Assembly (NCBI GenBank): GCA_043781235.1
Contig: JAYWBT010000174.1
Location: 113 to 64,112 of the forward strand
Source of the DNA: Deltaproteobacteria bacterium
GTDB taxonomy: Bacteria > Myxococcota > Myxococcia > Myxococcales > 40CM-4-68-19
Length of the DNA: 64,000 nucleotides
Reading direction: 5' to 3'
This document shows, piece after piece, positions 20,588 to 22,948 of the stretch. The position numbers and the translations under genes were made by a program. The first letter of the stretch is position 1, and each line of letters starts with the position of its first letter. The notes beneath the pieces are model-generated. The model did no database searches and had not been told where the DNA came from. It saw only the letters and a program-made list of their open reading frames with translations.

Positions 20588-20938
20588 ATGCAGAGCGTGA
20601 ACCTGATCACCGACGCCCGCTTCACCGACGACAAGCCCAACACGCTGCACGCGGTGAAGACCGATCAGCTGCTGATCGACGGCCTCTACCTCAAGCCGGG
20701 GCAGCGGACCGGCTGGCACAAGCAGCCCGACGCCGACCGCGCGTTCGTCTGCGTGCAGGGCACCGGCGAGCTGGTGCTGGAGACTGTCGCGGTGGGCAAC
20801 GAGCTGCGCATTCCCCTGGCAATCGGCGCGGTAGCGCTGGCGCCGCGCGGCGTCTTCCACGAGGTGGTCGCGGGCGCGCAGGGGATGGTCTGCTCGGCGC
20901 TGTCGAAGTTTCCGGTGCGGGTGATCGAAAAAGGTTGA
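20588..20938 (+). CDS. cupin domain protein
   Basis: LKPGQRTGWHKQ...VQGTGEL...PRGVFHEV. Confidence 0.8.
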   Translation: MQSVNLITDARFTDDKPNTLHAVKTDQLLIDGLYLKPGQRTGWHKQPDADRAFVCVQGTGELVLETVAVGNELRIPLAIGAVALAPRGVFHEVVAGAQGMVCSALSKFPVRVIEKG

Positions 20939-20942
20939 GCGC

Positions 20943-21839
20943 TTGAGCCGGCCGCCGCCTTCGCGGCTCAAGCTGTCCGCGCTGCACGGCGACGCGGGCC
21001 TCACGCTGGTCGCGTTCCTGATCGCGCGCGGCGGGATCTCCGATGCCGAGGCGCGCGCCGCCATTGTCCGGGGTGGCGCGTTCCGGCGCGGGCGCCGCGA
21101 GAAAGATCCGCTGGCAAAGATAGCCGAGGGCGACCGCGTCGAGGTGCAGCTGCGCGCGCCCGGGCCGCCGGCACCGCTGGGACGCGAGCGGATCCTGCAT
21201 CTCGACGAGCAGGTGGTCGCCATCGACAAGCCGGCGGGCGTGAGCGCGCAAGAGGACCGCGCGGGCGGCGACGCGCTGCCGGAGCTGTGCGCGGCGCTGC
21301 TCGGCGCGCCGGTCTTCCTCGTGCACCGGCTCGATCGCGGCACCACCGGCGTGACGCTGCTCGCGCGCACGCAGCGCGCCCACGCCTTCCTGCTCGAAGA
21401 GTTTCGCGACCGGCGCGTGCGCAAGGAATATCGCGCGCTGGTATTGCAGACGCCCCGCGAAGGCGTGGTCGATCTCGCGCTCGGCCCCGACCCGCGCGCG
21501 CCTGGGCTGCGCCGCGCCGATCCCGCGGGAGACGAAGCGCGGACCCGCTTCTCCGTGCTGGAACGGCTGCGCCACGGCGCCCTCATCGCCTGCTTTCCGG
21601 AGACCGGTCGCACGCACCAGATCCGGGTGCACCTGAAGGAGCTGGGGTCTCCGCTGCTCGGCGACCCGCGCTATGGCGGCGCGGCGCAGGTCACGCGCGC
21701 GGACGGCGCTCGCCTCGAGCTTTCGCGGCCACTCCTGCACGCCCGGTCGATCGAGCTGCGCCATCCGGACGGCGGCAAGCTCGCCGTCGAGGCGCCCGAG
21801 CCGGGCGACTTTACCGCCGCGGTCGCCTGGCTGCGCTGA
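20943..21839 (+). CDS. RluA/RluD-family pseudouridine synthase with S4-like N-terminus
   Basis: DKPAG, HRLDRGTTG, TGRTHQIRVH, LGDPRYG, LHA; TTG start. Confidence 0.93.
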   Translation: MSRPPPSRLKLSALHGDAGLTLVAFLIARGGISDAEARAAIVRGGAFRRGRREKDPLAKIAEGDRVEVQLRAPGPPAPLGRERILHLDEQVVAIDKPAGVSAQEDRAGGDALPELCAALLGAPVFLVHRLDRGTTGVTLLARTQRAHAFLLEEFRDRRVRKEYRALVLQTPREGVVDLALGPDPRAPGLRRADPAGDEARTRFSVLERLRHGALIACFPETGRTHQIRVHLKELGSPLLGDPRYGGAAQVTRADGARLELSRPLLHARSIELRHPDGGKLAVEAPEPGDFTAAVAWLR

Positions 21840-21842
21840 CGG

Positions 21843-21871
21843 TTGAAAGACCGGAAAGCCTCTGTTAAGAG
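21843..21871 (+). promoter_or_regulatory. putative sigma70 promoter of the histone-like gene
   Basis: TTGAAA-N17-TAAGAG with TG extended -10. Confidence 0.5.
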
Positions 21872-21919
21872 CACGCCGCGTCATCGGAGCCTGAGAACCT
21901 GCTTTGCGGAGGGCGTCAT

Positions 21920-22132
21920 ATGAGCGAGACGAACGAGGGCGGAGAGAAGAAGGAGCCGCAGGGGCTGCTCATCGTGCAGAGCAAGGTGCGCGACGAGATC
22001 CGTGGCAAGGAGAAGCGCGTCTCCGACGAGTTCATCAACGCGCTCTCGGAGCACGTGCGCAAGACCATCGAGAAGGCGGTCGCGCGCGCCACCGCCAACG
22101 GACGCAGCACGCTCCGCCCCGAGGACATCTAG
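21920..22132 (+). CDS. prokaryotic histone-fold protein (short-alpha3, Bd0055/face-to-face-like)
   Basis: LIVQSKVR..I...RVS.EF...L...V...IEKAV.RA.ANGRSTL...D; SD GGAGGG upstream. Confidence 0.88.
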   Translation: MSETNEGGEKKEPQGLLIVQSKVRDEIRGKEKRVSDEFINALSEHVRKTIEKAVARATANGRSTLRPEDI

Positions 22133-22135
22133 CGC

Positions 22136-22948
22136 TTGCTGCAGGAGCTCGCCCTCGCGGCGATGCGCAAGCTGGTCGAGCGCGGCGGGCAGTCCGGTTG
22201 GGCCGCCACCCCCGCGGGCGCCCTGCGCTACGTGGTGCGCGGGCCGCGCGATGCGCCGCCGCTGCTGCTCCTGCACGGCCTGGGCGATTCGCTGGCGGGC
22301 TGGGCGCAGGTGATCGGTCCGCTCTCGCGCGACCGCCGCGTGCACCTGCTCGACCTGCCGGGCCACGGACTTTCGGCGCGCCCAGCTGACTGGCGCTTCG
22401 AGACGCTCGTCGCGGCGGTGCGCCACTACGCCGCCGGGCTGCAAGCGCCGGTGGTGGCCGGGCATTCGCTGGGCGGCTGGATCGCGCTGCGGCTCGCGCG
22501 CTCGCTGCCGCTGTCGGGCCTGCAGCTGATCAACCCTGGCGGCGCCATGCTCGACCGCGCGCTCTGGGCGCCGTTTCGCGAGCTGATCTCGGCGCGCGAC
22601 CGGCGCTCTGTCGAGCGCTATCTCGAGGCTGCGTTTCACCGGCCGCCGCTCGCTCTGAGGCTCTTCCCTGGCGAGGTGATCCGGACCATGTGGAGCGAGA
22701 GCGCGCAGGGGATCCTCGACGCGGTGACTGAGGCGGACTTTGTCAGCGAAGCGGAGCTTGCGGCGCTGCGGCTGCCGGTGCGGCTCATCTGGGGCGCGCG
22801 CGACCGGCTGCTCCCGGCAGGGACGCTCGACCACTTTCGCCGCGGCATCCCCGACGCCGACTTCGTCGAGCTTCCCGACACTGGTCACCTGCCCCATCTG
22901 GAATCGCCGCGTGCTCTCGCACGAGCGCTCGCGCTGCCGCTCGGATAG
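22136..22948 (+). CDS. alpha/beta fold hydrolase
   Basis: LLHGLG, DLPGHG, GHSLGG nucleophile elbow, WGARD, GHLPHLE. Confidence 0.92.
   Translation: MLQELALAAMRKLVERGGQSGWAATPAGALRYVVRGPRDAPPLLLLHGLGDSLAGWAQVIGPLSRDRRVHLLDLPGHGLSARPADWRFETLVAAVRHYAAGLQAPVVAGHSLGGWIALRLARSLPLSGLQLINPGGAMLDRALWAPFRELISARDRRSVERYLEAAFHRPPLALRLFPGEVIRTMWSESAQGILDAVTEADFVSEAELAALRLPVRLIWGARDRLLPAGTLDHFRRGIPDADFVELPDTGHLPHLESPRALARALALPLG

Follow-up and report, generated by a model that had tools for sequence, protein, structure and literature searches.

Bacterial histones have been recognised recently, and a short open reading frame in a 64,000-nucleotide stretch of myxobacterial DNA (hereafter the window, always taken at its full length) raises the question of whether it encodes such a protein and, if so, to which of the described kinds of prokaryotic histone that protein belongs. 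A preliminary description, made from the sequence alone, had proposed a bacterial histone gene with its own promoter in a myxobacterium-like host. The assignment of the host stands, as the closest named records to the encoded protein are Myxococcales MAGs.

The first part of the question is whether the frame is a gene at all. It occupies positions 21920..22132 of the plus strand, stop codon included, starts with ATG and encodes the 70 aa of the preliminary description, and every motif named there is found in the translation: LIVQSKVRDEI at residues 17-27, RVS at 33-35, GRST at 61-64 and the spaced motif R62-x-T64-x4-D69, with the C-terminus one residue past D69. Spurious ORFs are abundant in high-GC DNA, and two minus-strand frames (21916..22128 and 21881..22897) overlap this one, which would fit a chance open frame that is no gene. 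The way in which the sequence is conserved rules this reading out, and we assign it next to no probability: within the frame, the GC content of third codon positions is 0.96 and that of second positions 0.40 (GC3 and GC2), the pattern expected of a coding frame in high-GC DNA; dN/dS of the 55-codon core ranges from 0.10 to 0.51 in 11 pairwise comparisons with orthologues and lies far under 1; 133 homologues turn up in a protein database search at E ≤ 0.001; solved histones, as described below, are matched significantly both in sequence and in fold; and a Shine–Dalgarno sequence is conserved upstream. The frame is a gene under purifying selection, and the overlapping minus-strand ORFs are mirror artefacts. 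Two of the collected relatives, P0134 and P0145 (166 and 264 aa), share the histone start and continue into Arg/Pro/Gly-rich sequence; they look like frameshifted or mis-called genes in high-GC contigs and not like true fusions.

To which protein family the product belongs is indicated by its matches to solved structures. Searched as a single sequence against the sequences of the PDB, it retrieves the archaeal histone HTkC (9f2c) at 4.3e-7, the Leptospira histone HLp (9qt0) at 1.1e-4 and the Bdellovibrio histone HBb, also called Bd0055 (8cmp/8fvx), at about 8e-3. A profile of 42 relatives strengthens these matches to 1.5e-18 for HLp, 7.4e-17 for HTkC and 4.6e-12 for HBb and adds archaeal histones at 7e-4 to 9e-3; all nine matches of the profile search are histones. 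The family libraries give the protein no name, because its best matches stay under their cut-offs (CENP-S in Pfam with an E value of 0.12; archaea_histone in NCBIfam with 19 bits against a cut-off of 50), and for the same reason NCBI records label the relatives as hypothetical. The commonest weak Pfam matches among the 42 relatives are DUF5805 and CBFD_NFYB_HMF with 18 members each. JGI labels many of the relatives 'histone H3/H4' and some, wrongly, 'lactoylglutathione lyase'.

The predicted structure leads to the same family. The AlphaFold2 model has a mean pLDDT of 80, with values of 90-94 over residues 21-70 and below 50 at residues 1-3 and 6-13, and DSSP assigns it two helices at residues 17-29 and 36-59 as well as a three-residue helix at 67-69, so that the chain would be built as follows: a disordered N-terminal tail (residues 1-15; 21920..21964, plus strand as for all parts of the gene), helix alpha1 with K22, R24 and R28 (residues 17-29; 21968..22006), loop L1 with R33-V-S35 (residues 30-35; 22007..22024), the long helix alpha2 with R56 near its C-terminal end (residues 36-59; 22025..22096) and, finally, loop L2 together with a truncated alpha3 (residues 60-70, comprising N60, G61, R62, S63, T64, D69 and I70; 22097..22129). 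Foldseek, a check that the preliminary description had suggested, finds the histone fold, with HLp, HTkC and HBb at the top of its list (TM by target of 0.76-0.80 at an rmsd of 1.6-1.8 Å); the lower rows, among the matches listed, are all histone-fold proteins. Judged by its sequence relatives and its modelled fold, the 70-aa protein is a histone, and the earlier reading of it as a prokaryotic histone with a truncated alpha3 is borne out by PDB matches, profile, AlphaFold2 model and Foldseek alike.

Which kind of prokaryotic histone it represents can be narrowed down from the length of its helices. The model displays the helix-loop-long helix-loop-helix arrangement of the alpha3-truncated histones; alpha3, which spans 3-4 residues in this group, comprises residues 67-69, and the chain ends at residue 70. 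Another trait of the group, according to Schwab et al. (2024, PMC11390915), is an alpha2 that is 4-5 residues shorter than in nucleosomal histones; here, alpha2 has 24 residues, and where the profile matches HMfA, its 40 positions extend over 44 residues of the HMfA chain, a difference in overall length that would be consistent with this trait. We rejected the assignment to the archaeal nucleosomal histones, which possess a full-length alpha3 of about 10 residues: HMfA, HMfB and HPhA (PDB 1B67, 1HTA, 1KU5) resemble our protein in their fold and in the motifs of both loops, L1 and L2 (weak but specific profile matches at 7e-3 to 9e-3), but their full-length alpha3 builds the four-helix bundle of the hypernucleosome, whereas the chain described here stops one residue past a three-residue alpha3. 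Likewise rejected was a pseudodimeric histone of the DUF1931 type, which has two folds per chain: the protein has a single fold within 70 aa, and PF09123 is weakly matched by four of the 42 relatives (best E value 0.032), the 70-aa protein itself being unmatched. Among the distant relatives are many proteins of about 120-150 aa, P0121, P0122, P0123, P0204 and P0213 among them, that match the query twice and hence are tandem alpha3-histone doublets; in P0123, P0204 and P0213 a hydrophobic, signal- or membrane-anchor-like segment lies ahead of the histone fold.

Schwab et al. (2024, PMC11390915) distinguish two groups of alpha3-truncated histones, face-to-face (FtF) tetramers on the one hand and 'bacterial dimers' of the HBb kind on the other. 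FtF histones have a conserved R48 and N52 (HMM numbering) at the dimer-dimer interface in addition to the motif R-x-T-x4-D, and PMC11390915 describes bacterial dimers as being without R48 and N52. For HLp, the tetramer residues are given as R49, N53 and R55, with R55 and D62 forming the so-called RD clamp (PMC12701072). According to the offset deduced from the pairwise alignment, R49, N53, R55 and D62 of HLp are R56, N60, R62 and D69 of our protein, and the placement of R56 and N60 on the FtF logo follows from the HLp and HTkC alignments together with the text of PMC11390915 and PMC12701072. Both elements, the R-N pair and the motif, are present: R56 and N60, as well as R62, T64 and D69, which make up the RD clamp and the L2 threonine, are invariant in the alignments of 33 close and of 42 wider sequences, and the R-N-R-T-D pattern recurs in 116 of 120 close homologues and in 91 of 100 distant representatives of 45-110 aa. 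In HBb, by contrast, S and D replace R56 and N60 in the profile alignment.

The modelling of dimer against tetramer that the preliminary description had recommended gives a consistent picture. Four copies of the chain were predicted to assemble with an ipSAE of 0.88 in three of three runs, compared with 0.00 for the best of three controls, although this score may echo the model's memory of the solved complexes 9F2C and 9QT0; the runs share at least 98% of their contacts, and the partner pLDDT is at least 83. In the calibration of ipSAE, 20 of 30 proteins with a solved structure as pairs of one chain came up to the mark, as did 1 of 23 solved as single chains; the present job differs from the calibration by its four copies and its own alignment. 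The scored chain meets its handshake partner over residues 15-70 and the other dimer via residues 55-56, 59-60, 62, 66 and 68-69, that is, through the end of alpha2, L2 and alpha3, in the manner of an FtF homotetramer; the output covers the contacts of one chain, from which a closed ring cannot be read.

The main competitor of a tetramer is a histone-fold dimer resembling HBb/Bd0055 that bends or coats DNA without wrapping it around a tetramer. HBb of Bdellovibrio bacteriovorus (PDB 8CMP, 8FVX, 9EZZ, 9F0E) is likewise alpha3-truncated, possesses the R-x-T-x4-D motif in L2 and coexists with HU (PMC10627809 and PMC11317129); it is a dimer and is reported to bend DNA and not to wrap it (PMC10627809, PMC11317129 and PMC11390915). 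Its kinship with our protein is significant (4.6e-12 by profile, TM 0.77-0.80), HU/IHF genes are kept in the genome as they are in Bdellovibrio (PMC10627809), and the tetramer is a prediction that may recall solved complexes. However, precisely the two residues whose absence defines the bacterial dimers in PMC11390915 are invariant in this clade as R56 and N60 and replaced by S and D in HBb; moreover, the FtF members HLp and HTkC outscore HBb in every search, and in the model a second dimer is packed, at low expected error, onto residues 55-69. We consider the dimer unlikely. The histone most probably belongs to the FtF subfamily and not to the Bd0055/HBb dimer type, and would operate as a tetramer by wrapping DNA, a reading based on sequence, modelling and analogy to which we attach a probability of roughly 0.75. 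Of the types named in the preliminary description, the prokaryotic, face-to-face histone is thus retained, whereas the Bd0055 type is abandoned.

A comparison with the two solved FtF histones makes clear what is shared and what is not. HLp of Leptospira perolatii (PDB 9QT0, 9QT1, 9QT2; PMC12701072), for which the FtF structure is established, as is its ability to wrap or bridge DNA over about 60 bp, has a single histone fold with a truncated alpha3 as well and is the best match both by profile (1.5e-18) and in Foldseek (TM by target 0.78, rmsd 1.8 Å, 37% identity). The residues of the tetramer interface and of the RD clamp as well as the basic alpha1 positions are common to both proteins. They differ in that S52 of HLp corresponds to A59 here and in that the DNA-contact positions T27 and G29 are not kept in kind, being V34 and D36 in our protein; furthermore, the tail is acidic here, three HU/IHF-family genes accompany the histone whereas Leptospira is described in PMC12701072 as lacking HU and Dps, and the neighbouring genes encode an RluA-like protein and a hydrolase instead of the SMC and MAP reported at the HLp locus. 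HTkC of Thermococcus kodakarensis (PDB 9F2C; PMC11390915), the best single-sequence match in the PDB (4.3e-7; 41% identity, TM by target 0.77), exhibits the same truncated fold and also has RVS in L1; it is archaeal, is devoid of an N-terminal tail and carries E at the position of N60.

Based on these relationships we propose the following mechanism. Two chains would associate to the usual handshake dimer, and two dimers would combine to a tetramer via the C-terminal end of alpha2, L2 and the three-residue alpha3, with R56, N60, R62 and D69 at the interface; such a tetramer would bind the DNA backbone irrespective of sequence, with about 60 bp being wrapped or bridged, as they are by HLp (PMC12701072). 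By analogy, the DNA-binding surface would be composed of the basic alpha1 residues K22, R24 and R28 together with the loops L1 and L2, to which R33, S63 and T64 contribute. The basic alpha1 positions, which align with DNA-contacting residues of HLp, are conserved in the close set of 33 sequences along with R33 and T64; R28, R33, S35 and T64 are invariant there, and S63 is nearly so. The histone would act as a nucleoid-associated protein beside the three HU/IHF-family proteins of the genome, while its acidic 15-residue tail would stay disordered outside the fold. The core of the protein has a charge of +3 and the tail of -2, which leaves the whole chain near-neutral (net +1, pI 8.1), and the acidic tail could weaken DNA binding. 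That the protein is tetrameric in solution and that it binds and wraps DNA is what we infer from these data.

The tail deserves a closer look. The preliminary description had mentioned a short charged N-terminal tail, and this is present as 15 disordered residues (MSETNEGGEKKEPQG), the charge of which turns out to be net acidic (-2). In the four-copy complex the tail makes no confident contacts, and in the alignment of 33 relatives it varies in length and sequence. Its net charge is below zero in 116 of the 120 close homologues. Where distant relatives possess a tail of at least 10 residues, it is positive in 42 of 60 cases and negative in 14 of 60, in agreement with the remark in PMC11390915 that bacterial FtF tails mostly carry a positive charge. 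It is chiefly by its acidic tail that this clade departs from the described FtF members; acidic, disordered and variable as it is, the tail is also unlike the tails of eukaryotic histones. One may speculate, at long odds, that the Myxococcales clade represents an 'acidic-tail' FtF variant in which a net-negative, disordered tail of 13-35 residues either folds back on the basic DNA-binding face as an intramolecular DNA mimic or recruits a partner. If this were true, wrapping would be tunable by ionic conditions or modification and not constitutive, and the histone could occupy the nucleoid together with HU/IHF and, in those sister genera that possess a further FtF paralogue with a basic tail, together with this protein too.

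With regard to the genomic context, the genes around the histone follow the order Urate_ox_N membrane protein, 116-aa ORF, rluA-like gene, histone, alpha/beta hydrolase and M16 peptidase. The rluA-like gene (20943..21839, plus strand; Pfam PF00849, 7.7e-25) encodes an RluA-family pseudouridine synthase and ends 80 nt before the histone ATG. The alpha/beta-hydrolase gene (22136..22948, plus strand; Pfam PF12697/PF00561) has a possible TTG start 3 nt past the histone stop and an alternative ATG at 22163. In all 11 other family genomes compared, the histone is followed by a hydrolase gene, and in 10 of the 11 it is preceded by an rluA-like gene. Outside the family, the rluA-like adjacency is found at four of five loci from other families of the order (L023, L039, L040 and L041, where, with protein identity down to about 40%, an RluA-family gene is still the immediate upstream neighbour in the same orientation) and at 0 of 11 loci in the remaining orders of the phylum. 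We interpret it as gene order retained by descent, and a functional link between the histone and its neighbours was set aside in view of this distribution. The 116-aa ORF between the Urate_ox_N gene and the rluA-like gene (20588-20938 of the window, plus strand) lacks a Pfam match at 1e-5 and is 80-95% identical across the family, conserved as strongly as the histone.

Within the gap upstream of the histone we found a sequence pattern that is plausible as a sigma-70-like promoter of its own with an extended -10 element. It consists of a -35-like hexamer TTGAAA at 21843..21848 (plus strand), which is aligned in most of the orthologous upstream regions, and an extended -10-like element TGtTAAGAG at 21863..21871 (plus strand), the hexamer of which (TAAGAG, 21866-21871) is preceded by TGt and follows TTGAAA after a 17-nt spacer. 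The TG and the next T are invariant in 15 of 15 aligned rows, and it is this conservation that suggests a function. The orthologous upstream regions diverge otherwise, yet keep TTGAAA, the fixed spacer and TGnTA, and 7 of 12 distinct genomes have an exact copy of TTGAAA-N14-TGnTA ahead of their orthologous gene (nine loci are listed with it, two of which duplicate others). In the 64-kb window, this pattern appears once, with 0.00 occurrences expected, and its slightly relaxed form TTGA[AC]A-N14-TGnTA has four copies in the 4.45-Mb genome (8.9 million strand-bases), all of them intergenic. The other three copies are situated at C65:31853-31877(-), C150:20402-20426(-) and C197:15751-15775(-); that on C150 lies 87 nt ahead of an HU-family gene (C150:20051-20314), and that on C65 precedes a 148-aa ORF. 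More distant orthologues of the phylum show, by eye, similar TTGAAT/TAGAAT-like pairs upstream. A consensus scan of positions 21500-22500 for sigma-70 promoters and terminators returned 0 promoter-like and 0 terminator-like sites; the TTGAAA/TAAGAG pair fails the sigma-70 rule because its -10 hexamer matches at 3 of 6 positions. Thus, of the sigma70-like promoter in the preliminary description the conserved upstream pattern persists, whereas the rule-based scan does not recover it; the good Shine–Dalgarno sequence noted there is a GGAGG at 21908..21912 (plus strand), 7 nt before the ATG, with GGAG aligned in 15 of 15 orthologous rows. A sigma-54 reading of the leader, considered by eye, was dismissed, since the GG/GC elements are missing and the orthologues do not contain the stretch in question. 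Rfam yielded for 21500-22500 a single match, isrG, at chance level with 15.5 bits against a gathering score of 100.

Transcription of the histone gene would most likely be initiated between the rluA-like gene and the histone, where the 80-nt gap contains the conserved promoter pattern (TTGAAA, a spacer of 17 nt, TGnTA) with a predicted start near 21878, and may continue into the alpha/beta-hydrolase gene; such read-through or co-transcription is possible since the hydrolase can start 3 nt past the histone stop and a terminator-like site was not found between 21500 and 22500. How abundant the protein would be can be approached via its codons. The codon adaptation of the histone gene falls on the 98.8th percentile of 3292 crude ORFs, an index that is equally high in 12% of random 70-codon windows and in 3.75% of 320 ORFs of 60-120 aa and that tracks GC3 (r = 0.94). 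As neither ribosomal protein L2 nor rpoB was found in the assembly, the reference set was limited to the genes of GroEL and of presumed EF-G and EF-Tu, the last of them a fragment, with 1539 codons in total; the labels EF-G and EF-Tu are a guess from a GTP_EFTU match. Codon adaptation is weakly suggestive of high histone expression.

These observations on context and expression also bear on another interpretation, namely that the protein has kept the histone fold but serves a specialised, non-architectural role at low copy, for instance as a local transcription regulator, a protein-protein adaptor or a factor connected with the genes for RNA modification and hydrolysis beside it. Such a role would fit the fact that four families of the order keep the histone next to an rluA-like gene, and it would also fit the near-neutral net charge and the acidic tail. 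Some prokaryotic histone-fold families, DUF1931 being the case described in PMC12701072, are without DNA-binding residues. The residues that align with the DNA-contacting positions of HLp (K22, R24, R28, R33 and T64) are conserved here, however, the absence of the rluA-like neighbour from all 11 loci of other orders speaks for inherited gene order, the promoter pattern is common to an HU gene, and codon usage is on the high side. On balance we regard a specialised role as improbable, and the FtF histone with an architectural function as the preferred reading.

As to the distribution of the gene, all but one of the 24 other family genomes have a match to it (23 of 24), as do 44 of 151 genomes of the order, where two large families account for 0 of 44 and 2 of 44, and 77 of 301 genomes of the phylum. 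The 4.45-Mb assembly that contains the window is 79% complete and harbours one histone copy and three HU/IHF-family genes; neither ribosomal protein L2 (Pfam PF00181) nor RpoB (PF00562) was found in it, which indicates that the assembly misses core gene clusters and that absences carry little weight. Sister genera of the family and one genome of another family encode another FtF-like histone, which is about 64 aa long and begins with a short basic stretch (L020:2001-2183, minus strand; L021:1995-2186, minus; L022:2001-2186, plus; L024:2001-2186, minus). It is 31% identical to the histone of the window and closer to HLp (3.5e-11), and it was not found in the genome of the window (79% complete) or in the other genome of the genus (98% complete).

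What has been identified here is an uncharacterised FtF histone of a kind already catalogued in bacteria and archaea, and the gene does not change the current picture of prokaryotic histones. Because FtF histones of Myxococcota have already been reported (PMC11390915 and PMC12701072), the histone is less novel than the preliminary description assumed. Our literature search found no paper devoted to a myxobacterial histone, and those that mention Myxococcota merely list the phylum; in the same literature, the bacterial histones with a biochemical study are HBb and HLp. What lends the finding a modest interest is that the tail is acidic, that HU/IHF proteins are encoded alongside the histone and that the putative promoter is conserved: within one uncultured family of Myxococcales, an FtF histone is highly conserved and near universal (23 of 24 other genomes), and its gene adjoins a conserved putative promoter of a kind that also precedes an HU gene. 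The clade would be a reasonable place to study how a histone and HU organise DNA in one bacterium and what role an acidic histone tail may play.
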